The position numbers were made by a program, and so were the translations under genes. The notes below the pieces were generated by a model that saw only the letters and a program-made list of their open reading frames with translations, was not told where the DNA came from and ran no database searches. Below, in pieces: positions 34,272 to 52,503 of a stretch of 64,000 nt of DNA (position 1 is the first letter of the stretch; every line of letters starts with the position of its first letter). The DNA is taken from the NCBI RefSeq assembly GCF_056746865.1, contig NZ_CM163382.1. The stretch is one strand, 5' to 3'.

Positions 34272-34679
34272 TCAGTTCCTATCCTTCCAGTTGCCCTCCT
34301 GCCCCCCCTCCCTGCTGTATACCCCGGTACCACAACTCGGGCAGCACTTTTCCCCCTCATAATTTTCGTCACACATCACACAAAACCACTTTCTCACCTT
34401 CACCGTATAATCCGGAACCGTCATACCCTGCAGATGCAAACGACGGGCCTCTTTCTCTGCCGGGTCAAGCCAGGTGCATCGCAGCAGGATTTTCTCAGCG
34501 ACAGTCATCTGGTCATGTTCAAACCACGGTGGTTGTCCGTCATTGCCCCGCTGAAGTGTTAACGGGCATCCACAGGACACACAGCACAAAACGTCCTGGC
34601 GGTTGTGCTTCGCTGCTTCTTTCGCCGTAACAAAATGGCCTTTGCTGTCATTCGCCATATAACAGTTCAGAATTCGCAT
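34272..34679 (-). CDS. Cys-rich hypothetical protein (paralog B of a tandem pair)
   Basis: 135 aa from ATG 34679 with AGGAGG RBS; same CxxC...PWFEH...CxxC layout; overlaps paralog A stop by 13 nt. Confidence 0.45.
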   Translation of the reverse strand: MRILNCYMANDSKGHFVTAKEAAKHNRQDVLCCVSCGCPLTLQRGNDGQPPWFEHDQMTVAEKILLRCTWLDPAEKEARRLHLQGMTVPDYTVKVRKWFCVMCDENYEGEKCCPSCGTGVYSREGGQEGNWKDRN

Positions 34680-35074
34680 ATTTCCTCCTGAGTTGTCCGG
34701 GGAATACTGAATCCTCCGGTCTGGCAGTGTGTGCAGTACCGCTCCCCATAATAATCGTGGTGACATTGTCTGCAGTGCCAGCTGGCTTTACGCACCACGG
34801 GTAAGGCATCCGGTACGAATTGCTGCAGACGTTTAATCAACTGTATTTCTCTGCGCTCCGGCCTGACATAAGGGCACTGTTGACCGTGCTCTGTCAGCCT
34901 GTCGTCAGTGTGTTCAAACCAGGGAAGTTCAGTGTCGTATTGCGGATGGTATCTGAGTGCACTGCCACACAAGTGGCAGGTGTAGTTAGCATAAGGTGCG
35001 GCCTGTGCAGTACGGGCGCCCGTCAGACGTCCGTTGCCATCAAGAGCGATAAAGGATTTTGCGTACATAGTCAT
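34667..35074 (-). CDS. Cys-rich hypothetical protein (paralog A of a tandem pair)
   Basis: 135 aa; CxxC...PWFEH...CxxC pattern; GAGGA RBS. Confidence 0.45.
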   Translation of the reverse strand: MTMYAKSFIALDGNGRLTGARTAQAAPYANYTCHLCGSALRYHPQYDTELPWFEHTDDRLTEHGQQCPYVRPERREIQLIKRLQQFVPDALPVVRKASWHCRQCHHDYYGERYCTHCQTGGFSIPRTTQEEICEF

Positions 35075-35327
35075 ATTCCTCAGCCGCCAGACGACACGCA
35101 GGCAACAGCCGTCCCGGTACGGGCAGCGTGGTCAGGGTGTGAATGGCGGTTCAGTTAAAATCTGGACTGGAGTTTGGGTAAAGCAGGCTGGTTGCTGTTA
35201 CAGCACTGTGGTTGTCACACAATGGAACACTGACGTAAAAAACAGTCAGTGGGCGAGTGGATACATCGTTGCCGCCAGACAACAACCCATACTTTTGGTT
35301 TGCCGGGTATTGGCGCGCCAGTCGTGC

Positions 35328-35897
35328 TCAACTCCGGCTACAGCCAAAATTGCGCTCACCGGTGCAGTGAGCTTTGGTATGTTCCTTCGCCAGATAGTCA
35401 GCACGTTCCAGCACCTGCTGAAAGCCAGTGTCATCATCGCGTTCCAGCCACACCGCCGGCCAGGCCGGGAAATGCACCAGCGTGGCATGGCACCCGACAT
35501 CCACTCCCAGGGCACTGCACCACGCCTGTTTAATCATCCCGGCCAGTGATCCCGGAGCACGGTAATCACCGGCACGACACCAGGTATCCCGGTTAACCAG
35601 CAGCATCAGGTGATAGTGTTTTTTACCTTTGCACTCCCCAAACTCCCGGGCCCAGACGTAATGCAGGGTTGTGGGATGCACGCGTTTACCTTCCCGATGC
35701 TTACGTTTCTGGTAAGCGTCGATTCGGGCTTTCAGGGCATTGATGAAGCGGGATATCACAGCTGCGTCCGTTGCTGCCGGTACATCCGGGAAACGCAGGT
35801 CAACCCGCAATGCCGTCAGGCGGGGATGAACATTCAGTGCGTGCCGCACCGTCTCACGAATACGTTGCTGCCAGAAGGGGTTGTATTTGTAGGTCAT
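35328..35897 (-). CDS. YagK/YfjJ-family (inovirus Gp2-like) protein
   Basis: ORF 35328..35933; likely start ATG 35897 (MTYKYNPFWQQRIRE) with GGAG RBS; family call from memory. Confidence 0.5.
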   Translation of the reverse strand: MTYKYNPFWQQRIRETVRHALNVHPRLTALRVDLRFPDVPAATDAAVISRFINALKARIDAYQKRKHREGKRVHPTTLHYVWAREFGECKGKKHYHLMLLVNRDTWCRAGDYRAPGSLAGMIKQAWCSALGVDVGCHATLVHFPAWPAVWLERDDDTGFQQVLERADYLAKEHTKAHCTGERNFGCSRS

Positions 35898-36093
35898 GGT
35901 TAAATCTCCGTATGGTTCATACGGAATAGCCACGTCGTAAAAAATGCGCAGAGTCCCTGAAGTGACCTCCGGCAGGACACTGTCTCAGGCACTCTGTGAT
36001 AACCCGAACGGTCGTCTCCGGACTGACGGTTGAATTTTCAGCGTTGTTTTTTTAATGTAAAAAACCGGTTACGGGTAAGGCTGTGAGGAGGGA

Positions 36094-36297
36094 GTGATGG
36101 TGATACGCAAAAAGAAGTGCAGGGACTGTGGAAACGCGATTACTCATAATACAGTGTGTTGCCCGTATTGTGGTTCTGTCGACCCCTTCGGCTATTACCG
36201 GAATACAGACCGTATCGTTACCATACTGCTGGCACTGATTATTGTGGTCCTGCTGACTACTGTCAGCGTCAGTGTGTATATACTGTGTAGCTGGTGA
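36094..36297 (+). CDS. small zinc-ribbon membrane protein (hypothetical)
   Basis: 67 aa; CRDCG...CCPYCG followed by one TM helix. Confidence 0.3.
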   Translation: MMVIRKKKCRDCGNAITHNTVCCPYCGSVDPFGYYRNTDRIVTILLALIIVVLLTTVSVSVYILCSW

Positions 36298-37423
36298 GAT
36301 AACGGTTCATGTATCCCCTGAGCTGACAGTGTACCGGGTATATTAAGCGTAACCGACAGGTTCTCCTTCATACCATATTAAATTTTTCCAGGTATTGCCG
36401 CTGCCTTATTTCGTCCCATACAGGAAAACTCGTCTGGGTTTCTGACAAATACGCGAAACTCACAGCCCCTCAATATCAACCACACGCTGTAAGCCGGTAA
36501 TACCTGAAAATCAGCCTATTACCGCCCGCGCCTCCGTTACCGAACGCTCAGGTGACCAGACTGAAGCCCAGCACGCACTCGTAAAATTTGCGGTCAGTTC
36601 CGTCAGTCAGTGGGCAACCGCAGAGTTACGGGCTTCCAGGTCCACAGGAGTGAGTCTATAACGCGTGTGGGAAATCATTTTTTCTGGCGTTGACAGAACG
36701 CCTTACGGGCTGCTACTTACCCGGTGTCCCGCAATACAGCCTTAGTGTTCCGTTATCGGGGATCCGGACGCACCGCAACAACCGGGGAAGTATTTCTGGT
36801 TAGAGCTGTGTCAAGAGGGATTTCTCAGCCCCTCACTCACCGGCTCAGTCTCAGGGCAGAAGCATTAATACACTCAGTTCATGTCTTATACAGGAATGGG
36901 CATAGGGGGAGCTGGCGTGTCACTGCTGATTTTACGCATCAGCGTTCATGTATCTGCACTCTGATACAGAATGCTTCACAGCGCTCTGTTACCGGAGAGA
37001 TTTACTCTCTTAGGTTATTCTGGCAAATCCTTTACGTTACTCTCTGATGACTTCTTATATTTATAATACCAATCAGACAACCTTATCCCATCGGTGATAT
37101 CAGTCTCCTGCTCGCCAGGAACGGGCTGACTCACTGTAACCACCTCCGAAAACAACTCTGCAATTATCAGAACGCCTGCTTCTCTCCCTGTCCTCACGAA
37201 AACTATCCCCTCTTTATCGCGCGTGCGTGCGGAAGCATCTTTTCGCAACCCCCCCCCCCGGGATTCCGCTACGGCTCTGCCATCGCAATCCCCCCGTTTA
37301 TCTCCGGACAGCCACATTCCCGATTATTTTTTACGTTTCTCCCCGGTTGTTATGCCGGTGAAGGTGGCGCGCTGTTTTCATGACCACACCGGCTGGTTTA
37401 ACAACATCCGGAGGAACATTCTC

Positions 37424-37630
37424 ATGGCTACCCCAGTTTCGCTGATGGATGACCAGATGGTCGACATGGCGTTTATCACTCAACTGACCGGCCTTACCGA
37501 TAAGTGGTTTGACAAACTCATCAAAGATGGGGGCTTTCCTGCGCCCATCAAAATGGGGCGCAGCTCCCGCTGGCTGAAAAGTGAAGTGGAAGCCTGGCTG
37601 CAGGCGCGTATTGCACAGTCCCGTCTGTAA
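37424..37630 (+). CDS. alpA: AlpA-family phage transcriptional regulator
   Basis: ORF 37223..37630; start ATG 37424 after GGAGG; 68 aa with MGRSSRWLKSEVEAWL. Confidence 0.75.
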   Translation: MATPVSLMDDQMVDMAFITQLTGLTDKWFDKLIKDGGFPAPIKMGRSSRWLKSEVEAWLQARIAQSRL

Positions 37631-37717
37631 TTTTTAACCACTAACCCTTCGCCCACAGCAGACGCAATCTCCGGCCTGCCGGCGGCGCTCTGCTGCCTGT
37701 TATCCCCCGTGAGGAAT

Positions 37718-38326
37718 ATGAAAATGAAACAACAGTATCAGACCCGTTACGAGCTGCTCCATGAAAACTACCAGAAATGGCTGACCGGCTTCACCCGGCA
37801 CGCCGTATCATGGGGCGTGTGTCATCCGAATATCTACTATTTCCATAATCTGACGCCCGGGTGGGTGTCATTCAATGGCGAAAAACCGGAGATTGCCATC
37901 GTTCCCCAGAGTCTGCACCGGCTGATTTATGGTCCGGACAAACGGAGCTCCCCGTCCCTGGATGATGATCTGGTGGTGAATTTATGCACCAGCGAACACC
38001 TGCTGGTTCATCATCCGATGCTGGAAGGGATCCTGCTGTCTGAATGTGAGCGCCTGAAGCAACATTCTCTGGCAAACAAACTGATCAGCCTCTTCCGTCA
38101 GTTTGGCGGCACGGAGTTACGTCTCAAACTGGTCTGGCTCTGCTGGCTTGACTTAATGACCGGAAACAGCCTTGACGACTGGACGAAAAACCTGAAACAC
38201 AAATCAGAAAAAGATCTGGAGCAATGGATCATTGCACGTCAGGGTCAGAGTGAACCACTGACAAATCTGATGGATCAGTACGTGCTTATGGCATACCGTA
38301 CATCGGTTGATGCCGCTCACAGTTGA
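37718..38326 (+). CDS. hypothetical protein
   Basis: ORF 37709..38326; ATG 37718 after GAGGA; no recognised domain. Confidence 0.45.
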   Translation: MKMKQQYQTRYELLHENYQKWLTGFTRHAVSWGVCHPNIYYFHNLTPGWVSFNGEKPEIAIVPQSLHRLIYGPDKRSSPSLDDDLVVNLCTSEHLLVHHPMLEGILLSECERLKQHSLANKLISLFRQFGGTELRLKLVWLCWLDLMTGNSLDDWTKNLKHKSEKDLEQWIIARQGQSEPLTNLMDQYVLMAYRTSVDAAHS

Positions 38327-39285
38327 TGTCTGAGAACCACAGGGCTGGCAGCAGAAAACCAGCCCTGTGGTAAAATACAGTAATAGCGGCGTACATCAGG
38401 CACGCCGCTCACTCGTCCACAGATCATATACGTCATTATACTGCGCGATAACGGAGGGCTTCAGCACCCGGTCATTTCTGAGCGGGTATGAATACCATTG
38501 ATGATGCGAAGCAGCCACGGGCAGAAACGTTCTTCACAACCAGGTGCCTCCATCTTCACTGCAGTCTGAATGTGCCGGCTTGTTATCCACCAGAAATGGT
38601 ATGCTCCGGTACATGCATACCCCGGAGACTATAAACGCACTGAATCATAGCCTCCCACCTCAGCAGGAGGCAGTCAGCTTTCAGGCGGAAAAACGTTGCA
38701 GTTAAAGATCGTGAGAATCGCTGTTTCGTTGCATAGCAACCCGAACAGTTGTAGTGAAACATTTTACCTGCATCAGCACATGGTCAGGCGCCGTCTGTAT
38801 GGCGTGGAATACTGATGTTTCGGCTGATGGCAAGCCTCATTCTCTGTGGAAACAGGGGCGCGCATTAGCTTCTCAACCAAGAGAGTGTCACAAAGACAAA
38901 TATTGCTGAAAATCGCATTCATCGTTCAGGCGTGAATGCCCGGAGACAAAAGCCGCTGTCCACACAGTCCCCCTCTGACCTGAACAAAAAGCATACACAC
39001 AACAGGCTCACCTGACCCCGAAAAACCATAACTTCAGCAATACCAGTGACACCAGCACGTTACCTCAGTGCCACATCTTCAGACCGCGATCAATCTGAAA
39101 TGTGACTATCGGGGCAATATCCCTGCTTTGTGGTACACGATAACCAGAAAACATCCCCTGAACCGCCAGCCAGAAAGACTGGCCACAAAAGGGGTAAGCT
39201 GAAATCGTTTATGGATTACATCGACATATGCCTGGCAGAGAATGGTAAGCGTGCAGTGAGAACCGTATTGACGAAGTGAAGCTGG

Positions 39286-40821
39286 TCAGGCGGGCAGAGT
39301 AACCCGCCACGGGAGCAGAGCACCCACCCGGTTCACAGGCCAGTCGGCGATGACATCAAGTACATGATGCAGATAGCGTTCCGGATCCACGCCGTTTAAT
39401 TTGCACGTCCCGATAAGACTGTACAGTGACGCACCGCGCTCACCACCATGATCCGAGCCGAAGAACAGCCAGTTTTTTCTCCCCAGACTGACCAGTCGTA
39501 GGGCGTTTTCGGCAATGTTATTATCCACCTCCACCCAGCCATCTTCTGCATAGCGGGTCAGCGCCGGCCACTGGTTCAGCGCATACCCGAACGCCTTCGC
39601 CAGTTCTGAGTGCCTTGAGAGGGTTTTCTGTTTCTCCCGCAGCCACCCCTCCAGTGACGCCAGCAGCGGCAGCACTTTTTGGTGCCGGACTGCCTGCCGT
39701 TCCTCTGCTCTTTTACCTCTGAGCTCCGACTCGATGGCATACAGCTCGCCGATCCGTTTCAGCGCCTCCTCCGTCAGGGCTGACGGGGTACGGACGTGAA
39801 CATCGTGGATTTTTCGGCGGGCATGGGCCCAGCACGCGGCTTCCTTTATATGGCCGTCGCGGTAGAGCTCGTTGAACCCGGCGTAGGCATCAGCCTGCAG
39901 TACGCCACTGAAGCCTGCAAGATGGGTCTGAGGGTGGATACCTTTTCTGTCCGGGCTGTAAGCGAACCACACTGCGGGGGCCAGCGCTGATCCGGCGTTG
40001 CGGTCGTCTCGAACGTACGTCCATAAGCGCCCGGTCTTCGTCTTCTTATTGCCCGGCAACAGCACCGGGACAGGCATATCGTCAGCATGGAGTTTGCCGT
40101 CGGTCAGGACATAGTGCTGAAGGGCTTCATCCAGCGGTGCCAGCAGACGACAACACGCATCCACCCAGCCCGACAGTACAGAACGACTCAACACTACACC
40201 CTGGCGGGCATAGATCTCCGACTGGCGATACAGCGGTATGTGCTCTGCATACTTTGAGGTCAGCACTCGGGCCAGCAGCCCCGGTCCGGCGATCCCCCGT
40301 TCGATGGGGCGCGAAGGAGCCGGGGCCTGAACGATGCGATCGCACCGACGGCAGGCATGCTTTTCACGGACTGTCCGGATAACCCGGAAGGCGCTGCGCA
40401 TCAGCTCCAGCTGTTCGGCGGCATCCTCACCCAGGTAACTCAGCGAACCACCGCACTCCGGGCAACACGGCTCAGTCGGCAGCAGCCGCTTCTCATCCCG
40501 TGGGAGTGACTCAGGGAACGGTTTGCGGGTGCGGGTCTGACGCAGCGGGCGCTGCACTGCCGGGTCATCCACCCGGCCGGTCAGCGTATCGCTTTCCTGC
40601 TGCAGCAGGTTCAGGTCAGCTTCCATTTGCGCGATACGGCGGGATACCTTTTCGGAACGACTGCCGAAGTTCATCCGGCGCAGCTTATCCAGTTGCGCCT
40701 GCAGATGGTCTATTTCGCGTTCCCGGTTGCTCAGCTTTTCCTGCAGGGCGTGGATCAACGCTTCCTGGTTCGGCCAGGCGCTGTTTCAGCAGAAGGATGT
40801 CGTCAGAAGAGGTGTCGTTCA
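39286..40821 (-). pseudogene. IS66 transposase TnpC with a frameshift in the first ~20 codons
   Basis: ATG 40821 encodes MNDTSSDDILLLKQRLAE, then one extra C shifts into the long ORF (QEALIHALQEKL...) at 40758..39286. Confidence 0.7.
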
Positions 40822-40871
40822 TAAGCCTGTATTTTACCAGGCTTATTCTGCGACAACCAGGATAAAGAGCG

Positions 40872-41219
40872 CTACAACATGGTCAGGGATGTCAGTAACC
40901 GCTTTGGCTGTCGCCAGTCGATACCTTCCATCAGCATCGCCAGTTGCGCCGGCGTCAGGAACACTTTGCCATCGCGGGCTGAGGGCCAGGCGAAGCGACC
41001 ACGTTCTAGTCGCTTTGTCAGCAGGCACAGACCATCGCCGGTGGACCAGAGCAGTTTTACCTGACTGCCGCTGCGTCCCCGGAAGATGAAGACGTGGCCG
41101 GACATCGGGTCATCTTTCAGCGCGGTCTGCACCTTTGCGGCGAGGCCATTGAAGCCGTTGCGCATATCGGTGATACCGGCAACCAGCCAGATTTTTGTGC
41201 CTGCGGGAAGATTTATCAT
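40872..41219 (-). CDS. IS66 accessory protein TnpB
   Basis: 115 aa, MINLPAGTKIWLVAGITDMRNGFNGL... Confidence 0.85.
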   Translation of the reverse strand: MINLPAGTKIWLVAGITDMRNGFNGLAAKVQTALKDDPMSGHVFIFRGRSGSQVKLLWSTGDGLCLLTKRLERGRFAWPSARDGKVFLTPAQLAMLMEGIDWRQPKRLLTSLTML

Positions 41220-41599
41220 ACAGGCCCCCGCATCAGTTCGCGCAGGACAGTGCTCATGAGTTCAGCAGAGGGATGAGTCAGTGTTATTTCTCCTCCCCGA
41301 CATTTTATGTGGCAGGTAGCGGGAGGAGAGCAGGATGGTAGTTCGAAGGTTGGGAGAGAAGAGCCCGCCTGAAGCTGCACGGGTATCAGGGCAGGAAGCG
41401 ACGATGAGTTTTTTCGGGGCCGACAGACCCGCCCTTCACGCTGCCAGAGCCTTATCCATTTAAAGAGCAGGTTATCATTGACGTCATGTTTCCGGGCCAG
41501 TGCGGCAATACTGCCTTCTTCTTCAAGAGCCAGCCTGACCAGTTCCATTTTGAATTCAGGGGAATAGTGTTTCCGGGGAAGTCTTTCTTTAGCGCGCAT
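41216..41599 (-). CDS. IS66 accessory protein TnpA
   Basis: 127-aa ORF whose stop overlaps the tnpB start. Confidence 0.7.
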   Translation of the reverse strand: MRAKERLPRKHYSPEFKMELVRLALEEEGSIAALARKHDVNDNLLFKWIRLWQREGRVCRPRKNSSSLPALIPVQLQAGSSLPTFELPSCSPPATCHIKCRGGEITLTHPSAELMSTVLRELMRGPV

Positions 41600-43154
41600 G
41601 AGGTGTCCACCTGCAAAATAAGTGGGTGCTTAAGTTACAGGATCCTGGATTCGGGACCAGACGGTACTCAGACGACGCTTACAGAGAATGTCCGGAATGA
41701 CGAGGTTATCTTTGCGGAGATTAAGGCAATGGTATACGGGCCGACGTTCCATGCCGCGTTACTACATTCAGCCCGGACGTAAAATGCGCCCGTCAAAAAG
41801 AACGGTTCGCTTCGAAACTCAGCCAGGATACCACCTCTCCGCCACACCCGGGAAGAAGTTGATATGGTGGTTGCCGGACAACAGCGCTCCTGGATTGACT
41901 GCTGCATCACTCAACCACGCTGAATATCAAAGGAGAGCGTTACCGGTTAAAAGAGAAACGTAAAGCTGTGGTGATGACCCAAAACGCAACGCCTGTCAGT
42001 GAGGATGAAATGGTGAAAAGCGGACAGCATCAGTAACGGAAGTATCTTAGCGGGTACGAAAATGGCAGGATCGTGACATTGACAGAATATCTCCTGATCA
42101 TCCTGAATGACTGCAGTTGCTGTAGAAAAGTAAGCTGTCTCCACCCACGGCACCACTTAACAGGCATTCCGTAACTTCCCCCAGACTTACTATGACGCAT
42201 TATCGGTGCACTGAAAACGGGAGAGTGCGCTTAAAACCGCAGACCGCATGCGGGTGTTACTGCATGACAGTCTGGCCGTATTGTGAGATGTCGGCAGGAA
42301 CCGATGTCCGCGCAGGGGGGAACTTCCTGCAGTACCTGACGCTTCAAATGGTATTAACCGTAGGGTGTTGTTGGTTCCGGATCGCGGAAATGGGAGCACA
42401 GGTCTGCTACGGGGTGTACCTCTGACAGTATATCCGGCTCGCTCATCTGACAGCCTCTCTCCCGGAAAAGACCAAAAATGAGATCGTCTCCTCAACAGCA
42501 GAGAAGAGGTCTTGACAGACAGGCTATATTGCATACGATTTATGAAGAAAAAGACAGCAAATATGGAGGTTATAGCGGAGAATACCCTACGAAATTCCTA
42601 TGAAAAACGATTGAAAAAAATATCAAATTCGATTCGTTTTTATATGCTTTTTGGGAGCGTGGCGATGACGAACTGTTGCATGTGCAGAGGAGAATGCACC
42701 CGGAAGCACCAGAATCATCCAGAAAGGCAGAACGATTACGCATCAAACCAGGAGACAGCAATATCAAGGTAATATACTGATTTAAAATGAATTTACAGCA
42801 ATACGTGAAAACATTTTTTACTTAAAGGAGACAGATGCGCTGAAGAGAGTGCAAGTATTTTTATATAAAAATGAGAAGTTTACGGGATGTATATCCGGCA
42901 CACTATGACCGGAGAATATCAGTCAAGCTTAAAAAGACAATAAATACAGTGAGTTAAATACACAGAGAAAACGTAGTATCAGAGGGTACATCTTACAACA
43001 GAGACTGAATTTCCGGTTTTTCATAACCGGCGCATTCCGGAAAGTGCAGGCGGCCCGGAGGTTTTCTGACGCCACTACCTGGTAGATTGTTCTGTACATC
43101 ATGTACGGAGGTTTTTGTTTGCTTTTTTAAAATCTGCAAATGTGAGAAAAGCAG

Positions 43155-44318
43155 GTGAGGTGTATTGTGGGAAAGGAACTGGATGATATCTGCACCAGCT
43201 GTCCGTATATCGATGCTGTAAAACGGCACAAACAACAGCTCGGTGCCATAGAGGAATATACACAGTGGTTAAAAAAAGAACCACGGGCATCTTATTTTTT
43301 TCTGTTCCAGCTGTATACCCGCATTCACAATACATTTTTCTCCCAAAAGCAACAACTCCCGTTCACTCCCGGTGGCACTCACTGCCCGGAACCTGATGTC
43401 ACCCTTCGGGACTTAACGCTTTCCCCTGGCTACCACAGTGATTATGCCCCTCAACCCATTCCGGAGATGGACAGTTCTGCTGTTGTTCCCCCAACTAATG
43501 AAAACACCTCGCCTCCGGAAGATACTCCCGACAACACTCCGGCCGGAGGCAATACCGGACAAGCGGAAAAGACCAGAAACGCAGGACTCACACCCATTCC
43601 TGAAAAACGTTCAGGAATGCCCCCGGAACATCTGCGGTTTGCCACGGGGTTTCCATCGCAACCGAAGATTGCCGGTCCCAGAGAAAAGCCGATGCGCACC
43701 GTGCATCCGGATAAAATCTACCGTGAAATTATATGGTTCTGCTCCAGTTACCTGCTGAAATCCGGACCAGAGGCTACGAGGACGATTATCAACTCAGTAT
43801 TCTCTGAATGGGCCAGCATAAACAATGATTACCCCTCCCCCTTTTCGTGGGTGGACAGCAGGGACAGTGAACAGTGTGACTGGTTATGGAACGCCATGCA
43901 GGTCCGGTGTGTGGGAACCCCGCTGAATCCCCTTACCCCGGAGCAGAAATACTGGTTTGCCTGCGCCACGTTTGATAACTGGGAGGGCTGGAATGAGCAA
44001 CAGGTACAGTTTTTACTGGAAAGTAATCCCAGACGGAACAGAGCGAAGTTTACGCAGGTCTCCTTCCAGGCCCCCAGGATTCAGCATAAAGCGATTCTTC
44101 TTGATGAGCTGAAAAGTGCCCGGGAGCAACAAAAAAGGCGTGATGAACGTGCTGATGGTTCCGTCCCTCTGAAACTGTCCGGAAAAATCCACAAACAGCT
44201 TGAAAGTATTGCCCGAAGTCGTGGTGTCCTCCCAAAAAAACTGCTGAATGAAATGATTGAGCAGGCGTACCATGATTTGGTGGCAACCAGGCAGAACAGC
44301 CAAATCGATTCCAGATAA
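43155..44318 (+). CDS. hypothetical protein with a Pro/Thr-rich central linker
   Basis: 387-aa ORF; start uncertain (GTG 43155 or 43167); no recognised domain. Confidence 0.5.
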   Translation: MRCIVGKELDDICTSCPYIDAVKRHKQQLGAIEEYTQWLKKEPRASYFFLFQLYTRIHNTFFSQKQQLPFTPGGTHCPEPDVTLRDLTLSPGYHSDYAPQPIPEMDSSAVVPPTNENTSPPEDTPDNTPAGGNTGQAEKTRNAGLTPIPEKRSGMPPEHLRFATGFPSQPKIAGPREKPMRTVHPDKIYREIIWFCSSYLLKSGPEATRTIINSVFSEWASINNDYPSPFSWVDSRDSEQCDWLWNAMQVRCVGTPLNPLTPEQKYWFACATFDNWEGWNEQQVQFLLESNPRRNRAKFTQVSFQAPRIQHKAILLDELKSAREQQKRRDERADGSVPLKLSGKIHKQLESIARSRGVLPKKLLNEMIEQAYHDLVATRQNSQIDSR

Positions 44319-44839
44319 TTTCAGACAGATATTATTTCCGTGAATCCCCCGCCACCTTTCCGGTGCGCGGGGTTTTGTCTTTTTTCACCGGGAATACATG
44401 TATGAATCCGTCTGATGCCATTGAGGCAATTGAAAAACCGCTCTCCTCCCTGCCTTACTCACTTTCCCGTCACATCCTGGAACATCTGCGCAAACTCACC
44501 AGTCACGAACCCGTGCCTGGCATTATGGGTAAAAGCGGGGCCGGTAAATCCTCACTCTGTAATGCGCTGTTTCAGGGGGAGGTCACCCCGGTCAGTGATG
44601 TTCACGCCGGCCCCCGGGAAGTGCAGCGCTTCCGTCTTGCAAAATGGCATCTGAATCGATCGCAGTTTGGCATTCGAATCGATCATGATTTGGCATCCAT
44701 CTCCGATCACAGTTTGGCATCACAATCGATCACGATTTGGCATGCTTCCGATCATTGATTGGCATCCTGCCAGTCACTCCGGGAATTAACTCTTTTCACC
44801 ACAGTCTCCATTGCCGTGTTTAAACCAGTGGAGACGTCA

Positions 44840-46405
44840 ATGTCCAGAAAGAGAAAATCCAGGAGCACTATGGAAACCTGTTTTAAGATTCTTCAGCTCA
44901 AGTTCGACAAGAAGCTGACTAACCGTTGTATCGGACTGACGTTACACATCAGCGCCTCAACCGTTTTTGAGGTTCTTGCCCGCTTCAAAGCCTCTTCTCT
45001 GTCATGGCCATTACCTGCTGATATATCCCATGACACGCTGGAGAAACTCATTTTTCCGCCCAAAGACACCTTTGCATCAGAGCTTGTAATGCCTGACATG
45101 TTGTACCTCGATACGGAAATGAGAAAACCAGGTGTGACGCGGCAACTGTTGTGGATGGAATACAAGGCACAGGCGGGTAACAAAGCGATGGGATACTCGC
45201 ACTTCTGCCGTTGCTACCGGGAGTGGAAAAAAACGCGACGTCTCTCCATGCGCCAGGAGCATCGTGCCGGCGAAAAGCTTTTTATCGACTTCTGTGGTCC
45301 TACGGTTCCTGTTATTAATCCGGACACCGGTGAGATACGCCGCGTGGCAATCTTCGTGGCCGTAATGGGGGCGTCCAACTATACCTACGTTGAAGCGTGC
45401 GAAGGTCAGGACATGATGTCATGGTTAAATGCCCACAGCCGTTGCCTGACCTTCCTGGGCGGCGTACCGAAGCTGCTCATCCCCGATAACCTCAGAAGCG
45501 CAGTGAAAAAGGCCGATCGATATGAGCCTGTCATCAACGACAGTTATCAGGCACTGGCTGAGCACTATGGCACGGTTATCATCCCGGCCCGACCACGCAA
45601 ACCTAAAGATAAACCAAAAGCAGAAAACGGCGTCCTCATCGTCGAACGATGGCTTCTTGCCCGCATCCGTAATGAAACCTTCCACACGCTCAGGGCGCTG
45701 AATGCGCGCCTTAGGGAGTTACTGACAGACATGAATAACCGGCCAATGAAGGGGTACGGCAATCAAACCCGTGCAGAACGCTTCCGCATACTGGATGCGC
45801 CAGCACTCTCTCCGCTGCCTCTGGCACCTTATGAATACACGGAATACAAAGCTGTGAAGGTTGGCCCTGACTACCACGTTGAATATGCCCGTCACTGGTA
45901 CTCCGTTCCACACGAACTGGTCGGTCAGCGTCTGTCACTGAAGGCGGGGCAGTCGGTGGTACAGCTCTGGCACAAGGGGCAGTGTGTGGCGCAACATCCG
46001 CGCAGCACACATGAATATAAACACACAACCAATCCGCTTCACATGCCAGAGCGCCACCGGCAGCACGGGACATGGACACCGGAACGCCTGATCGAGCAGG
46101 GAAAACGTACGGGCCCGTCCACAGGCCGGGTGGTTGAATCCATGCTGAAGGCAAAACCCCATCCGGAACTGGCTTATCGTGCAGTTCTGGGGCTGCTGGC
46201 ACTTCAGAAAAAATACGGCCCGGAACGGCTGGAAAAGGCCTGTTACGTTGCCCTGCACTATAACGCCCCTGACAGACGCTTTATCGACAATCTGCTGCGT
46301 CACCATCGGGAGAACCTGGAGCTTCCATTATCCCGCCAGGGCGAACAACATCCGGCATATGCTTCAGAGCATGAAAACCTGCGTGGTCCGGGCTACTACC
46401 ACTGA
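44840..46405 (+). CDS. istA: IS21-family transposase IstA
   Basis: ORF 44759..46405; start placed at MSRKRKS (44840), uncertain. Confidence 0.8.
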   Translation: MSRKRKSRSTMETCFKILQLKFDKKLTNRCIGLTLHISASTVFEVLARFKASSLSWPLPADISHDTLEKLIFPPKDTFASELVMPDMLYLDTEMRKPGVTRQLLWMEYKAQAGNKAMGYSHFCRCYREWKKTRRLSMRQEHRAGEKLFIDFCGPTVPVINPDTGEIRRVAIFVAVMGASNYTYVEACEGQDMMSWLNAHSRCLTFLGGVPKLLIPDNLRSAVKKADRYEPVINDSYQALAEHYGTVIIPARPRKPKDKPKAENGVLIVERWLLARIRNETFHTLRALNARLRELLTDMNNRPMKGYGNQTRAERFRILDAPALSPLPLAPYEYTEYKAVKVGPDYHVEYARHWYSVPHELVGQRLSLKAGQSVVQLWHKGQCVAQHPRSTHEYKHTTNPLHMPERHRQHGTWTPERLIEQGKRTGPSTGRVVESMLKAKPHPELAYRAVLGLLALQKKYGPERLEKACYVALHYNAPDRRFIDNLLRHHRENLELPLSRQGEQHPAYASEHENLRGPGYYH

Positions 46406-46421
46406 CAGAAGGAACAACAGT

Positions 46422-47177
46422 ATGAGTGATAACCTGTTAAACAAACTGACCCAACTGAAACTCCCGGCGATGGCCGGGAGCCTGATACGGCAGCGGGAAA
46501 CGCCTCAGACCTACGACGAACTGTCGTTCGAGGAAAGGCTGACGCTGCTGGTTGATGACGAGCTTCTGAGCAGGGAAAACAGCCGTGTGGCACGGTTGAG
46601 AAAAAATGCCGGCCTGAAATACCAGGCAACACCGGAAGGGCTGCGCTATCCGGCCTCAAGAGGTCTGCGGGCTGAACAGATGAGAGAACTGCTGAACGGC
46701 CACTACATAACCCACAGGAAAAACCTGCTGATAACCGGTCCGACAGGATGTGGCAAGAGCTGGATAGCCAATGCGCTGGGCGAACAGGCATGTCGACAGA
46801 AACACAGCGTCCGGTACTGTAGAACCGGGCGATTACTGGAACAACTGGCTCAGGGACGTGTTGATGGCAGCTGGCTGAAATATCTGAAACAGTTGCAAAA
46901 AATACAGGTTCTAATCCTGGACGATCTGGGGCTGGAACAGTTAAGTAACGCCCAGTGTAATGACCTTCTGGAGCTCATAGAGGATCGTTACGGACAAAGC
47001 AGCACGATAGTGGTAAGCCAGTTCCCGGTAGATAAATGGCATGGTCTGATGGAGAACCCAACAACAGCAGATGCCATCCTGGACAGACTGGTACATAACT
47101 CACACCGGGTGGTCCTTCAGGGAGAGTCACTGAGGAAAAATCCCCCGGTAGTGGAAAGCAGCGAAAAAACGCGTTAA
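46422..47177 (+). CDS. istB: IS21-family ATP-binding helper IstB
   Basis: start ATG 46422 (MSDNLLNKL); Walker A GPTGCGKS; DExx-like LILDDLG. Confidence 0.85.
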   Translation: MSDNLLNKLTQLKLPAMAGSLIRQRETPQTYDELSFEERLTLLVDDELLSRENSRVARLRKNAGLKYQATPEGLRYPASRGLRAEQMRELLNGHYITHRKNLLITGPTGCGKSWIANALGEQACRQKHSVRYCRTGRLLEQLAQGRVDGSWLKYLKQLQKIQVLILDDLGLEQLSNAQCNDLLELIEDRYGQSSTIVVSQFPVDKWHGLMENPTTADAILDRLVHNSHRVVLQGESLRKNPPVVESSEKTR

Positions 47178-48038
47178 AAAGCGGTAGAAAAAGTTAAGTT
47201 CCCGGTTGATCGAATGGATGCGAATCGCTGATCGGACTTCGATGCCAATCCGTGATCGAATAGAGCGGAATACGCATCCGTCTGAATGGCCATGGTCACA
47301 GCATGGTTATCACTGACCTGCCCGGGGTGGGCGAGAGCCGGGACAGGGATGCAGAGTATGAAGCCCTGTACCGTGACATTCTGCTCGAACTGGACCTGGT
47401 ACTGTGGCTGATTAAAGCCGATGACCGTGCCCTGTCTGTGGATGAGTATTTCTGGCGACACATCCTGCACCGGGGACATCAGCGGGTACTGTTTGTGGTG
47501 ATGCAGGCCGATAAAACGGAGCCCTGCCATGAATGGGATATGGCCGGTATTCAGCCTTCTCCCGCACAGGCACAGAACATTCGCGAAAAAACGGAGGCGG
47601 TATTCCGTCTGTTCCGGCCCGTACATCGGGTTGTTGCCGTATCGGCCCGCACCGGCTGGGAACTGGATACGCTGGTCAGTGCGCTCATGACAGCACTTCC
47701 CGACCATGCCGCCAGTCCCCTGATGACCCGCCTGCAGGACGAGCTGCGCACGGAGTCTGTCCGGTCTCAGGCCCGTGAACAGTTTACCGGTGCGGTGGAC
47801 CGGATATTTGACACGGCGGAGAGCGTCTGCATTGCCTCTGTTGCACGCACGGTTCTGCGCGCCGTCCGTGACTCGGTGGTCTCTGTTGCCCGCGCGGTAT
47901 GGAACTGGATTTTCTTCTGAACCCGGTGGTGATGTACCAGGCTGTTGTTACAGATTTTTAACTCCATGAAAACACTATGCAAACGCAGCCATACCCGGGT
48001 TGTCCCCTTGCGTTGTGTTTCTCAAGTTAATAGAATAC

Positions 48039-48080
48039 ATCGATCGTTACTATCATATCGATCGTTATAAACGATCGTTT
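48039..48080 (+). promoter_or_regulatory. three operator-like repeats with palindromic CGATCG cores upstream of the dynamin-like gene
   Basis: ATCGATCGTTA at 48039 and 48057, AACGATCGTTT at 48070; AGGAAGG RBS at 48124..48130. Confidence 0.45.
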
Positions 48081-48137
48081 GTAGTAAATGACCTCCTCCG
48101 TGGTTGTCATGAAAATGCGTCTTAGGAAGGTTAAATA

Positions 48138-50534
48138 ATGCACGAAAAGAACATCGCCCTGCTTTGTGATGAAGCCGACCGACTTTTGCAACTGAACATT
48201 AATCTGCTCCGGCAAATGGTTGAGGAGCCAGATGTGTTATCTGACAGTAAGAACGAAAACAGACTGCTTTTTGATAAACAGAAAGCACTGAAAAGAATTG
48301 AGGAGCTGGAGGGCGAACAAATCAAAACCGCCCGCAGGGAGATGGTGCTGGCTGTTGTCGGCACGATGAAAGCAGGCAAATCAACCACCATCAACGCCAT
48401 TGTGGGGCAGGAAATTCTGCCTAACCGTAACCGCCCCATGACCTCTGTACCGACGCTCATCCGCCACGTTCCCGGAAAAACTGAGCCGGTTCTCCATCTG
48501 GAACATATTCAGCCTGTCCGCAATTTATTAATCACACTGCAGGAAAAACTCGCCACCCCGGCAGGACAGCAGGTCGCACAGACCCTGCAGCAAACCGGGG
48601 ATACCCGCGAACTGCTGGATATTCTGACGGATGATGGCTGGCTCAAAAATGAATACCACGGGGAGGAGGAAATCTTTACCGGACTGGCATCGTTAAACGA
48701 TCTGGTTCGTCTTGCTGCGGCAATGGGGACTGAATTTCCTTTTGATGAATACGCAGAAGTGCAGAAACTGCCGGTGATCGACGTGGAATTCAGCCATCTG
48801 GTGGGGATGGATGCATGCCAGGGAACACTCACACTGCTGGATACCCCCGGCCCTAATGAGGCCGGACAACCGCAGATGGAAGTGATGATGCGGGATCAAC
48901 TGCAGAAAGCCTCTGCGGTTCTGGCTGTGATGGATTACACCCAGATGAACTCAAAAGCGGATGAAGACGTCCGTAAAGAGCTTAATGCCATTGCTGACGT
49001 ATCAGCCGGCCGCCTGTTTGTACTGGTCAATAAATTTGATGAGAAAGACCGCAATGGCGATGGGGCAGATGCCGTACGCCAGAAAGTTCCGGCAATGCTG
49101 AACAGCGATGTGCTGCCCGCCTCCCGCGTTTATCCCGGATCCTCACGCCAGGCATACCTGGCTAACCGTGCGCTTCATGAGTTACGGAAAAACGGAACCC
49201 TTCCTGTTGATGAAGCCTGGGTCGATGATTTTATCAGAGGTGCCTTCGGTTGCATGAAAAAAGAATACGTCTGTAAAGACAGTGAACTGGCAACTGAAGG
49301 GGCGACAGACCTGTGGGAAGGCTCACTTATCGATCAACTGATAACGGAAGTCATACAGAGCTCACATTCCAGAGCTGCGGCACTGGCGGTTGACTCTGCC
49401 GCCGCAAAACTGATGCAGAATGCAGAAAATATCAGTGAATACCTGTTGTTACGCCATCAGGGGCTACAGCAAAGCATTCAGTCACTGCAGTCGCATATCA
49501 CCAGCCTGCTTGCGGATATCCGGGAAATCGCGGACTGTCAGGAGCAGATGACCACTGATGTCAGAATGGCCATGGAGGAGATCGATACTAAAACCCGGGA
49601 ATTACTGACGGGGGTCTGCACCTCACTGGAAGAGGAGCTGAATGACTATTTCAGAAGCGGTAAACGCAAAGAACAGCAAATGCTGGAGGAAGAAGACGCA
49701 GAACAACGAAGGTCTCAGTCCGGATTATGGGGGAAAATTTCTCAATGGTCCGGTATCAACAACCAGGGCCGGGAGGATTACAGGAAACGAGATTTTGCCC
49801 CGGACAGCCCCGAAATAAAATTCAGTGATCGCAGGGAAGCCCTTGAACTGATGACGCAAATCGAATCGACCGTGACCAGCCTGCACCGTGAGGCTGAAGC
49901 ACAGTTCCGGCCTGAGCTGGAGAAAATCGTCAGCGGGATTGAAACAGGTTTTCGTGGCACGGCCCTGTACGCCACAGAAAACATTGCCGGTCGCATCAAT
50001 GCCCGCCTGGAGGATGAGGGCTTTACCGTAAAAATCAGTTTTCCGGCAGTCAGCCAGTTACAGACCCGGCTCGCGGTAAAAATAAATCTGAGTGCGCTTA
50101 TGGAGGAAAGAACGGAGACCGTCACCCGTCGCCGTCGGCAGAGTGGCGTATGGGGAACCGTTTGTCGATGGTTTGGCACCAGTGACCTGGGCTGGGAAAA
50201 CTATGACGAGGATGTGAGTCGCAGCGTGATCAATATCAACAAGGTCAGAGAGGAAGTTATGTCACTGACCCGGGCATATTTCGGGGAGCTGCAGGCATCC
50301 ATTGAGCAGGATATTAACCAGCCCGTCCGCCAGGAAATCGATGCCTTTTTCTGCGCATTCAGGGAGAAAGTTGAACAACTGCGTAACACGCTGATTCAGA
50401 GCTCTGAAGATCATAAACGCGATCAGCAGGCGCAGGAACGGCTTACCGGGCGACTTCAGGCATTAAATGAAAGGGTTCCTGAGCTCATTACTGACAGTAA
50501 GGCGCTGAGGGAAGAGCTGGAGACAATGCTGTGA
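48138..50534 (+). CDS. dynamin-like GTPase (bacterial dynamin-like protein)
   Basis: 798 aa; G1 GTMKAGKSTTINAIVG, G3 LLDTPGPNE, G4 VLVNKFD; long helical C-terminal half. Confidence 0.85.
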   Translation: MHEKNIALLCDEADRLLQLNINLLRQMVEEPDVLSDSKNENRLLFDKQKALKRIEELEGEQIKTARREMVLAVVGTMKAGKSTTINAIVGQEILPNRNRPMTSVPTLIRHVPGKTEPVLHLEHIQPVRNLLITLQEKLATPAGQQVAQTLQQTGDTRELLDILTDDGWLKNEYHGEEEIFTGLASLNDLVRLAAAMGTEFPFDEYAEVQKLPVIDVEFSHLVGMDACQGTLTLLDTPGPNEAGQPQMEVMMRDQLQKASAVLAVMDYTQMNSKADEDVRKELNAIADVSAGRLFVLVNKFDEKDRNGDGADAVRQKVPAMLNSDVLPASRVYPGSSRQAYLANRALHELRKNGTLPVDEAWVDDFIRGAFGCMKKEYVCKDSELATEGATDLWEGSLIDQLITEVIQSSHSRAAALAVDSAAAKLMQNAENISEYLLLRHQGLQQSIQSLQSHITSLLADIREIADCQEQMTTDVRMAMEEIDTKTRELLTGVCTSLEEELNDYFRSGKRKEQQMLEEEDAEQRRSQSGLWGKISQWSGINNQGREDYRKRDFAPDSPEIKFSDRREALELMTQIESTVTSLHREAEAQFRPELEKIVSGIETGFRGTALYATENIAGRINARLEDEGFTVKISFPAVSQLQTRLAVKINLSALMEERTETVTRRRRQSGVWGTVCRWFGTSDLGWENYDEDVSRSVININKVREEVMSLTRAYFGELQASIEQDINQPVRQEIDAFFCAFREKVEQLRNTLIQSSEDHKRDQQAQERLTGRLQALNERVPELITDSKALREELETML

Positions 50535-51436
50535 CTTCACCATTTATTCAACAAATTGCTGATAACCGGGTATGTCAGGTACTCACCTGTCTTCCTGAAA
50601 AATTTGTGGTTGATTTCGCAAACGGAATCGATGTTGCACAGGAGCATATCCGCACGGCCGGAGAGCGCACGTTCTTCCGGCGTTTAAAAGAGGGGCTGAC
50701 CGGCGAAGGCGCTGCACGGCAGAATGCCATCAATGCGTCGCTTGCACAGGGCGTTGAGGCGTCCCTGCGCTGGCTGACGGAGATGACAACGTCACTTGCC
50801 ACCACAAACTACGCGATTACCCGGGTAAACGACAGGGTCAGTTCACTGGTCAGTGATACAGCCAGGCTGGCGCATTATTCCGCAGATACGCGGGAGCAGT
50901 TACTCACCCTGGCCGATCAGGTTCACCATAAACTGAATCATCTTGAAGAAAAACTCCACCGTGTTGACCAGGTTCAGCGGGCGCAGTTACATCTTGAGCA
51001 GATATTCTCATGGTGGAGCGCCGGGCGATATGCGTCATTTTCCCCTGCCGGACGTTGTTATGTGGCACTTGAAGAGCTTCGCTGGGGCGCGTTTGGTGAT
51101 GTGATACGTCAGAGCGAAACAGGCCAGGTTAACCAGCTACTGGATATTCTCAGACATAAAGCATTAACGCAGATGGCACAGGAGAGTGGCGGTAGTGCAA
51201 CCGTGCGTCTGAACACTCTGGACTGGCTTGGTGGTCAGGGCCGGGAGCAGGCAGATAACGAGTGGCATGACGCGATTAACTGGCTGGGAGACTGGTGCAG
51301 TGAAGAGCAGCATCCGGTGATCTGGTCAACCACGCAGGCTGCAGAACACTTACCGGTTCGCATGCCTCGCCTCTGCTCTGCAGAACGCCTCTCTGAAAGT
51401 ATGGTCGATGAAATATTTCAGAAGGGGGCTGCATGA
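50531..51436 (+). CDS. hypothetical helical protein translationally coupled to the dynamin-like GTPase
   Basis: 301 aa; GTG start overlaps upstream TGA (GTGA at 50531..50534); no recognised motif. Confidence 0.65.
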   Translation: MTSPFIQQIADNRVCQVLTCLPEKFVVDFANGIDVAQEHIRTAGERTFFRRLKEGLTGEGAARQNAINASLAQGVEASLRWLTEMTTSLATTNYAITRVNDRVSSLVSDTARLAHYSADTREQLLTLADQVHHKLNHLEEKLHRVDQVQRAQLHLEQIFSWWSAGRYASFSPAGRCYVALEELRWGAFGDVIRQSETGQVNQLLDILRHKALTQMAQESGGSATVRLNTLDWLGGQGREQADNEWHDAINWLGDWCSEEQHPVIWSTTQAAEHLPVRMPRLCSAERLSESMVDEIFQKGAA

Positions 51437-52503
51437 GTACAGAAATGAAAACGGGGCTGGTGCTGTCCGGTGGCGGGGCGGTGGGCGCTTATCAGGCGGG
51501 AGTGGTTAAGGCACTGGCAGAGTGTGGTACACAGATCAGCATGGTTTCAGGGGCCAGCATTGGCGCATTCAATGGTGCCATTATCGCGGCCTCTCCCGAT
51601 CTGTCAGAAGCTGCCGTACGCCTGGAGGCGCTCTGGGATCATCTGGGGAATAATCAGGTGCTGTCGGTAAACAGATTGGTTTACTTTTCATTGCTGAAAA
51701 AATTGTTCCAGGCAATGAACCTCTGCCAGATCCCCGGACGTGCAGGAGCACTGCTTACGACGCTTCTTCGCCATATATCGACAATCAACGGGTTTGACAA
51801 TCTGATGGCTCAGCCGTTGTTGTCAGATGAGCCCCTGACAGCGCTGATGGATCATTATCTTGATACTGATGCTCTGGCAGACGGGCTACCGCTGTATGTG
51901 TCGCTGTACCCCACAGAAGGGGGCATGCAGGATATTATTGACTGCATTCGTGCTGAACTGGGTGTCGGAACCACGAAAAACGCCGTTTTTCAGCATATCC
52001 AGAGCCTGCCCCGCGGACAGCAGAAAGAGGCTCTGCTTGCGTCAGCCGCGCTGCCCCTGCTGTTCCGTCCCCGTGAGGTTCAGGGGACAATGTTCGGTGA
52101 TGGTGGTATGGGAGGATGGCGAAATATGCAGGGAAATACCCCTGTGACGCCTCTGGTCGATGCCGGATGCAATATGGTGATTGTGACGCATCTGAGTGAG
52201 GGTTCTTTATGGGATCGCCAGGCTTTTCCGGACACCACAATCCTTGAGATCCGTCCCCGGAAAAGGCTGAAATATGCAGGTGATGGTGGCAACAGCGGCG
52301 GTCTGCTCAGTTTTACATCGGCACATACCGACGCCTGGCGTCAGCAGGGCTATGAAGACACGATGCTGGCGATGGAGCATATCCGGAAACCGCTGGCAGC
52401 ACGTCAGGCACTGACCCGGTCAGAGGCGGTATTGCAGAAAAGCCTGGATATAACGGAAGAGGCAGATTTGGCACTGAGAAACGCGATGGCCCGGATTAAA
52501 TAA
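51433..52503 (+). CDS. patatin-like phospholipase
   Basis: 356 aa; GGGAVGAYQAG oxyanion motif, GASIGA (GxSxG) nucleophile, DGG catalytic Asp; ATGA overlap with the upstream gene. Confidence 0.85.
   Translation: MSTEMKTGLVLSGGGAVGAYQAGVVKALAECGTQISMVSGASIGAFNGAIIAASPDLSEAAVRLEALWDHLGNNQVLSVNRLVYFSLLKKLFQAMNLCQIPGRAGALLTTLLRHISTINGFDNLMAQPLLSDEPLTALMDHYLDTDALADGLPLYVSLYPTEGGMQDIIDCIRAELGVGTTKNAVFQHIQSLPRGQQKEALLASAALPLLFRPREVQGTMFGDGGMGGWRNMQGNTPVTPLVDAGCNMVIVTHLSEGSLWDRQAFPDTTILEIRPRKRLKYAGDGGNSGGLLSFTSAHTDAWRQQGYEDTMLAMEHIRKPLAARQALTRSEAVLQKSLDITEEADLALRNAMARIK

Follow-up and report, generated by a model that had tools for sequence, protein, structure and literature searches.

The window analysed here, a stretch of 64,000 nucleotides of the contig NZ_CM163382.1, carries on its plus strand an open reading frame that a program-made list places at 43155..44318, with a GTG start and 387 aa. 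RefSeq annotates the same frame on identical DNA from the GTG at 43167 as WP_000514100.1, a "hypothetical protein" of 383 aa (CDS 43167..44318, stop codon included). The frame described in an earlier note on this DNA is present, with its start to be corrected. The true start is most likely the GTG at 43167, 12 nt inside the listed one, because homologues begin at the equivalent position (MGKELDD or MEKELDD), a GAGG Shine-Dalgarno read from the sequence (43157-43160, plus strand, in a region conserved among alleles) stands 6 nt before it, and the GTG at 43155 is deleted in diverged alleles. The four residues added by the upstream start, Cys3 included, are therefore probably untranslated. The Cys-containing N-terminus that the note had singled out does not characterise the family; a CxxC motif is present only in E. 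coli-type alleles.

This frame is a real gene and not a chance ORF, since 1963 of 5426 complete E. coli genomes carry it intact, relatives exist across Enterobacterales, and its product is predicted to adopt a confident fold. More than one third (36%) of the complete E. coli genomes thus carry it, nearly always as one chromosomal copy, and every record is named "hypothetical protein". A profile search of 1.84 billion representatives gathered 159 relatives, all the named ones being again "hypothetical protein" (E. coli, Citrobacter, Klebsiella, Enterobacter, Yersinia, Serratia, Pectobacterium, Pantoea, and others). Full-length relatives with 26-32% identity are found in Citrobacter, Cronobacter, and other hosts. 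The note had recognised no family and the searches agree with it. Indeed, the single sequence has no match in Pfam and NCBIfam (none at E up to 1), in PDB sequences, or among the anti-phage defence models of PADLOC-DB, and PHROGs returned only two sub-threshold matches (E 0.06-0.11), both to families of unknown function. A literature search by accession gave no match. WP_000514100.1 belongs to an unnamed protein family without entry in curated libraries.

Among E. coli alleles of the gene, dN/dS is 0.5-0.7, which corresponds to only weakly purifying selection. Divergence at the DNA level reaches 14-18% versus about 3% in the adjacent yeeP-type GTPase gene, a five-fold difference, and the gene is therefore a fast-evolving, mosaic locus. 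Values of dS are about 0.8 in the Pro/Thr/Asn-rich loop, the most divergent part, versus 0.1 in the core. The C-terminal tails pair the window allele with L009 (…ATRQNSQ…) and L008 with L011 (…ANEQHKT…), and the N-termini of the same four alleles pair differently. These mosaic ends and the uneven dS point to recombination between alleles. A decaying, functionless remnant in a rearranged, IS-ridden island is a highly improbable reading of the locus. The dN/dS values, the disruption of the surrounding island by IS66, IS21, and IS remnants, and the absence of the gene from the CP4-57 island of K-12 would suit such a remnant, but the frame is full-length in about 1960 genomes, its motifs are kept at 20-30% identity across genera, the predicted fold is confident, and both synteny and an upstream motif are conserved.

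Position in CP4-57-type islands

The gene is located, as correctly stated in the note, between an IS66 element (genes at 39286-41599, minus strand) and a yeeP-type gene interrupted by an IS21-family element. The 5' part of this GTPase gene, the conserved downstream neighbour, occupies 44402..44637 on the plus strand. It is cut by the IS21-family element at 44638-47276, which includes istA/istB-type ORFs (44759-46405 and 46179-47177) and is flanked by a 7-bp target duplication (TCCGTCT), and it resumes at 47277-47920. Many E. coli genomes carry the GTPase gene intact.

In eight diverged lineages, the family gene holds one position in CP4-57-type islands. One side displays restriction/defence cargo, an AlpA-type regulator, and a Rep-like gene of YagK/YfjJ type (inovirus Gp2 / REP_ORF2-G2P), from which the family gene is directly divergent in five lineages. 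The other side includes, in seven of the eight lineages, the yeeP-type GTPase, DUF932, a WYL regulator, an antirestriction protein, RadC, DUF987, and CbeA/CbtA; on the short L006 contig, an integrase gene follows the family gene in place of the GTPase run. Conservation of the neighbourhood with yeeP-family genes, a check proposed in the note, holds down to about 24% protein identity. In E. coli-type islands, alpA and a conserved 200-aa gene stand upstream of the WP_000514100.1 gene in the same orientation, and in the window they are further separated from it by IS66. The equivalent slot of the K-12 CP4-57 carries defence cargo and no family member.

The note had placed the gene in a slot for regulatory or conjugation-related functions. 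The regulatory half of this proposal is supported by a predicted C-terminal ribbon-helix-helix (RHH) domain and by the place beside yeeP-type genes, whereas the conjugation half is not. Indeed, no relaxase or T4SS similarity was found for WP_000514100.1, and the family is absent from phages (no match in 50,697 phage records) and essentially absent from plasmids (three records only); IMG/VR holds it at one locus on one contig.

These tRNA-integrating elements are described in a preprint as uncharacterised and possibly satellite-like, with a gene list comprising the integrase, an AlpA-like excisionase, a HUH Rep, and a RadC/ArdB/CbtA module, and the WP_000514100.1 gene is not mentioned there (PMC12458937). 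Islands of the CP4-57/CP4-44 type carry defence systems, adhesins, and toxin-antitoxin modules as cargo, and it is not understood how they are regulated, replicated, and transferred (PMC12458937). The gene is one of the few fixed genes of their control region. Its place recalls that of second regulators divergent from alpA, such as the LuxR-type regulator of PIME1 or the Stl-type master repressors of SaPI/PICI, the likeness being positional only, that is, a control region beside alpA and replication genes. In PIME1, excision and replication need both regulators (10.64898/2026.01.12.698999). The PIME1 and Stl regulators have no sequence or fold relationship to WP_000514100.1, and no helper element is known for the CP4-57-type island.

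Other genes of these islands deserve mention. In all lineages checked, the AlpA-type gene is followed by one for a protein of 190-200 aa that has no Pfam match (window 37724-38326; L003 8602-9195; L005 8598-9191; L009 6797-7399; L014 6793-7368) and displays the conserved sequence MLEGILLSEC-x-RLKQ...LANKLISL...LRLKLVWLCW. It is another unannotated core gene of CP4-57-type islands, and its kinship with the WP_000514100.1 family was rejected on the basis of profile tests, which revealed no relation. On the minus strand, a conserved pair of tandem paralogous zinc-ribbon genes (DUF7828 / Zn_ribbon_11; window 34272-35933, L001 3873-5498) comes after the Gp2/YagK-type Rep-like gene in E. coli-type and L005 islands. 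Farther downstream, at 48138-52503, the window carries a run of three genes whose stops and starts overlap. They encode a dynamin-family protein (798 aa), an RdcB/YjcZ-family protein, and a patatin-like phospholipase. This run gave only weak LeoBC and phospholipase-effector matches in PADLOC and may be a defence or membrane-remodelling cargo module.

Helical repeats and the C-terminal ribbon-helix-helix domain

Structure prediction, also proposed in the note, returned a confident AlphaFold fold for WP_000514100.1 (whole monomer, pLDDT 79.5, pTM 0.72). Residues 219-383 reach a pLDDT of 92, and the C-terminal half, rightly held to be conserved, scores 90-98 and displays 47 invariant columns among relatives of 26-31% identity. 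The basic helical segment reported at its end is likewise real, as seen in both AlphaFold and the homologue alignment. Residues 76-134 fall below a pLDDT of 50 and are predicted to be disordered.

Most relatives are compact proteins of about 300 aa, and 76 of them were found to consist of three tandem units of 80-90 residues each. The units were related to each other by hhalign, with repeat A matching repeat B at 99% (E 2.7e-18) and the N-terminal repeat matching A or B at 96%. Each unit is a Trp-rich set of three helices with three successive motifs, namely F-x-W-L-x5-(Q)C-x-W-x-W-x-Y, P-x3-E-x-Y-x2-I-x-A-x-F-D-x-W, and K-x2-F-L-x4-K-A-W-x-Q-K-K-x-R. Mapped onto this plan, residues 18-54 of WP_000514100.1 (43218..43328, plus strand, as all features of the protein) correspond to the first helix of repeat A together with a remnant of the N-terminal repeat that is complete in compact relatives, and carry the motif W-L-K-K-x-P-R-A-x-Y-F-F. 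Residues 182-371 cover the remainder of A, the whole of B, and the C-terminal domain. WP_000514100.1 thus lacks most of the N-terminal unit, and its residues 55-181 form an expanded loop of roughly 125 residues inside repeat A. The hypervariable Pro/Thr/Asn-rich disordered segment (residues 76-134, 43392..43568) is the core of this expansion; the low-complexity segment pointed out in the note is therefore real, whereas its reading as an interdomain linker is not retained. Helices 2 and 3 of repeat A span residues 181-221 (43707..43829) according to AlphaFold, hhalign, and the family mapping. Repeat B covers residues 226-329 (43842..44153), with PFSW-x6-QC-x-W-x-W, ATFDNW, and a long basic helix ending in QQKRRDER, and includes a lineage-specific insertion of about 30 residues.

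The last 50 residues of WP_000514100.1 are a predicted RHH DNA-binding domain (residues 333-382, 44163..44312). A short beta-strand (VPLKLS) followed by helix A (339-352) and helix B (356-382) with the RHH sequence pattern is present in the family. The C-terminal profile matches CopG (E 0.005), 56B, ORF56, MazE7, HP0222, and Reg576, all in register, and the family consensus scores 26.3 bits against Pfam RHH_1 (cut-off 20.5). Some relatives also reach RHH models, whereas the WP_000514100.1 sequence by itself passes no curated RHH model of Pfam or NCBIfam. WP_000514100.1 is made of two tandem three-helix repeats followed by this domain, where compact relatives have three repeats. It is a new RHH protein with a new tandem repeat domain, encoded by a core gene of a common and uncharacterised island type, and no curated family fits it.

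The strand-helix-helix aligns in register with repressors of the CopG/Arc/MetJ type (RHH_1 PF01402; CopG of pMV158, PDB 2CPG). CopG is an RHH alone, with 45 aa, whereas in WP_000514100.1 a large repeat domain precedes the RHH, which takes up the final 50 of the 383 residues. Like copG, the gene adjoins a rolling-circle-type Rep gene, but copG shares the rep operon, whereas in the five lineages with an adjacent Rep-like gene the RHH gene is divergent in all and never in the same operon.

RHH domains are also found in antitoxins such as TacA, ParD/PrpA, MazE4, and HicB, which are unrelated to WP_000514100.1 in size and N-terminal domain. No recognisable toxin partner lies beside the gene, the downstream neighbour being a GTPase that evolves independently. 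A type II antitoxin was rejected in view of the 383 aa, the 83-nt gap with a terminator-like site, and a GTPase gene that diverges five-fold slower and is sometimes separated or absent. Partnership with the yeeP-type GTPase can be conceived more broadly, the RHH repressing the gene pair and the helical repeats binding or restraining the GTPase in an antitoxin-toxin or sensor-effector manner. The GTPase gene is directly next in seven of the eight lineages, down to 24% identity, and a C-terminal RHH also occurs in HicB-type proteins. Nevertheless, such a partnership is improbable. In some islands the pair is split by cargo genes, no GTPase adjoins the gene in the Serratia and L006 relatives, and the 83-nt gap of the window includes a weak terminator-like hairpin with a T-run (44358..44382, plus strand). 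The contrast of about 3% versus 14-18% divergence gives no sign of co-evolution, the gene is intact in the window though IS21 destroys the GTPase gene, and neither protein matches a toxin-antitoxin or defence model, save for a weak LeoBC match of the GTPase.

Comparison with MatP

With repeat B added to the RHH domain, MatP replaces CopG as the best PDB sequence match. The combined profile matches it with 27.1 bits and E 3.5e-5 (profile 16-125 versus MatP 9-130), while shuffled MatP scores at most 13 bits. Comparison of profiles by hhalign against a MatP alignment of 23 sequences gave 85-88% with E 3-7e-6 over about 100 columns. Repeat B is the part aligning to the N-terminal helical bundle of MatP, and the RHH, which comes directly after the basic helix, aligns in register with MatP 66-130. 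Taken by itself, the helical part scores 6-11 bits against MatP, Foldseek of the WP_000514100.1 model against PDB returned no match, and neither Pfam MatP model (PF06303, PF17414) is matched by the family. Support from these comparisons for a resemblance to MatP is moderate, not decisive.

MatP (YcbG; PF06303 plus PF17414; PDB 4D8J, 3VEA, 7NYW) and the WP_000514100.1 family share the order of bundle, basic helix, and RHH. The bundle starts in both with a W-x-W-x-Y-L helix, the basic helix reads KAWxQKKxR in the family and QTIRARRKRH in MatP, and both are restricted to Enterobacterales-type gammaproteobacteria as far as source names show. Differences are equally clear. MatP ends with a C-terminal coiled coil for tetramerisation and partner binding (PMC12756933), which is absent from the family, as its members end at most about 25 residues past RHH helix B and the alignments stop at MatP 130. 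The family has one or two extra helical units upstream, and its gene is accessory and island-borne where that of MatP is core chromosomal. The candidate site of WP_000514100.1 consists of direct repeats, whereas matS is a 13-bp palindrome (GTGACRNYGTCAC); matS was not found near the gene, with one chance-level match with 1 mismatch 6 kb away. On the coiled coil, matS sites, core-gene status, and Pfam models, the family is not a member of MatP.

A MatP-like organiser that compacts, bridges, or positions island DNA, or that interferes with host MatP, MukBEF, or division, is a very improbable role for the protein. MatP is indeed the best PDB sequence match over bundle and RHH, and the MatP bundle also contacts DNA (PMC12756933). 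However, the family is devoid of the coiled coil, no matS lies nearby, and the candidate motif occurs once in the 64 kb instead of being scattered.

Upstream repeats and the proposed role

Three 11-bp direct repeats, CCTACGAAATT CCTATGAAAAA CGATTGAAAAA, lie at 42586..42618 on the plus strand, at -581 from the start of the WP_000514100.1 gene, and constitute a candidate operator. Such 11-bp-phased CTAYGAAWTT repeats stand upstream of the family gene in four lineages that share 24-31% protein identity and whose intergenic DNA is otherwise unalignable. On the coding strand, they are found at -156 in L003 (CCTACGAATTT TCTACGTATTT AAATCGAAATT ACTATGAATTT), at -152 in L005 (CCTACGAATTT ACTATGGATTT, with an inverted copy before them), and at -131 in L014, the lineage of 24% identity (ACTACGAAATT ACTACGTAAAA). 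In two other lineages, ATTACTAA-type repeats replace the CTAYG motif as three or four ATTACTAAAAn units, also with an 11-bp period, and the RHH strand of one of these lineages is similar. The two compact-family loci display inverted TACTAC/GTAGTA repeats beside the start codon.

The pattern CTAYG-N6-CTAYG has a single match in the 64-kb window. It occurs once each in 9 of 11 loci, always upstream of the family gene on the coding strand, and is absent from the compact-family loci L006 and L007. A looser CTAYR-N6-CTAYR gave nine matches in 516 kb, seven of them upstream of family genes. These statistics are post hoc because the motif was found by inspection and the pattern was derived from the same sequences. 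Still, chance can hardly explain the conservation of the motif across unalignable DNA. In E. coli-type islands, the motif accompanies the WP_000514100.1-type gene and not the Rep-like gene, which lies about 4 kb from it. The repeats could be bound by AlpA, by the Rep-like protein, or by the conserved 200-aa neighbour instead of WP_000514100.1.

In the E. coli type, a distance of 580 nt that includes a terminator-like hairpin separates the upstream repeats from the gene. A promoter-like site, TTGACA-16-TACGAT (42512..42539, plus strand; 10/12, a consensus match only), precedes them by 47 bp and is retained in E. coli-type alleles; scanning five upstream regions for promoters gave results at chance level. 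The hairpin (43090..43120, plus strand; nine pairs and a T-run), also conserved among alleles, lies about 50 nt before the start codon and might act as an attenuator or mark where a non-coding unit farther upstream ends. The roughly 600 nt from promoter-like site to hairpin (42512-43120) are non-coding and 82-96% conserved among alleles. They may represent a long leader subject to regulation or an independent non-coding RNA; no Rfam family matched within 36000-48500. An upstream ORF of 76-86 aa (42512-42772) was rejected as coding because its frame is broken by a 2-nt indel in allele L011.

RHH proteins usually act through short phased repeats, and most of them autoregulate. From the observed domain content, repeat structure, synteny, and upstream motif, WP_000514100.1 is proposed, with somewhat better than even confidence, to be a dimeric RHH regulator that binds the upstream repeats as a core component of CP4-57-type integrative islands. 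Two copies would pair via their RHH domains into a DNA-reading beta-ribbon. Then, successive dimers would occupy the repeats spaced by one helical turn. By analogy with most RHH proteins, this binding would set the expression of the gene itself and probably also that of neighbouring modules of the island. Like the bundle of MatP, the helical repeats would provide further DNA contacts or oligomerisation, and a signal may be sensed by the loop and N-terminal part, which evolve fast. With a DNA-binding domain and a candidate operator in hand, the island switch is testable by simple experiments.

The same repeats could be read as iterons, for which 11-bp direct repeats are typical. WP_000514100.1 would then be an accessory factor marking a replication or transfer origin, where its RHH binds the repeats and assembles or controls the HUH Rep-like protein (YagK/YfjJ, inovirus Gp2 type), as CopG with RepB on rolling-circle plasmids or as RHH accessory proteins of relaxosomes. 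This alternative is rather unlikely, though it has several points in its favour. A preprint reports genes for AlpA and a HUH Rep in islands of this type (PMC12458937), five lineages have the gene in divergent orientation right beside the Rep-like gene, and family members weakly match RepB-RCR_reg (PF10723, below cut-off), RepA/CopB, NikA-like, and BfmA N-terminal models. However, all these matches are far below cut-offs, the Rep-like gene of E. coli-type islands lies about 4 kb away without a motif copy, divergence from rep differs from the co-transcription of copG, and no nick-site-like hairpin was identified.

The regulator proposed above can be extended to a more speculative and unlikely scenario, in which the family would be an island-borne sister of MatP. 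By analogy with Stl de-repression in SaPIs, the tandem-duplicated bundle and the fast-evolving loop might sense a helper phage or plasmid, freeing the RHH from the phased operator and switching on Rep and AlpA. If this were true, the organiser of the Ter macrodomain would share ancestry with the master regulator of widespread uncharacterised tRNA-integrating islands. The resemblance itself, if confirmed, would provide the first outgroup for a chromosome-organising protein of unknown origin and would also define a new repeat domain that deserves a family entry. A separate observation concerns P0220, a MatP variant of 197 aa encoded on one 7.9-kb contig. About 47 residues of its helical bundle are duplicated internally, which may represent an assembly artefact or a natural bundle duplication.
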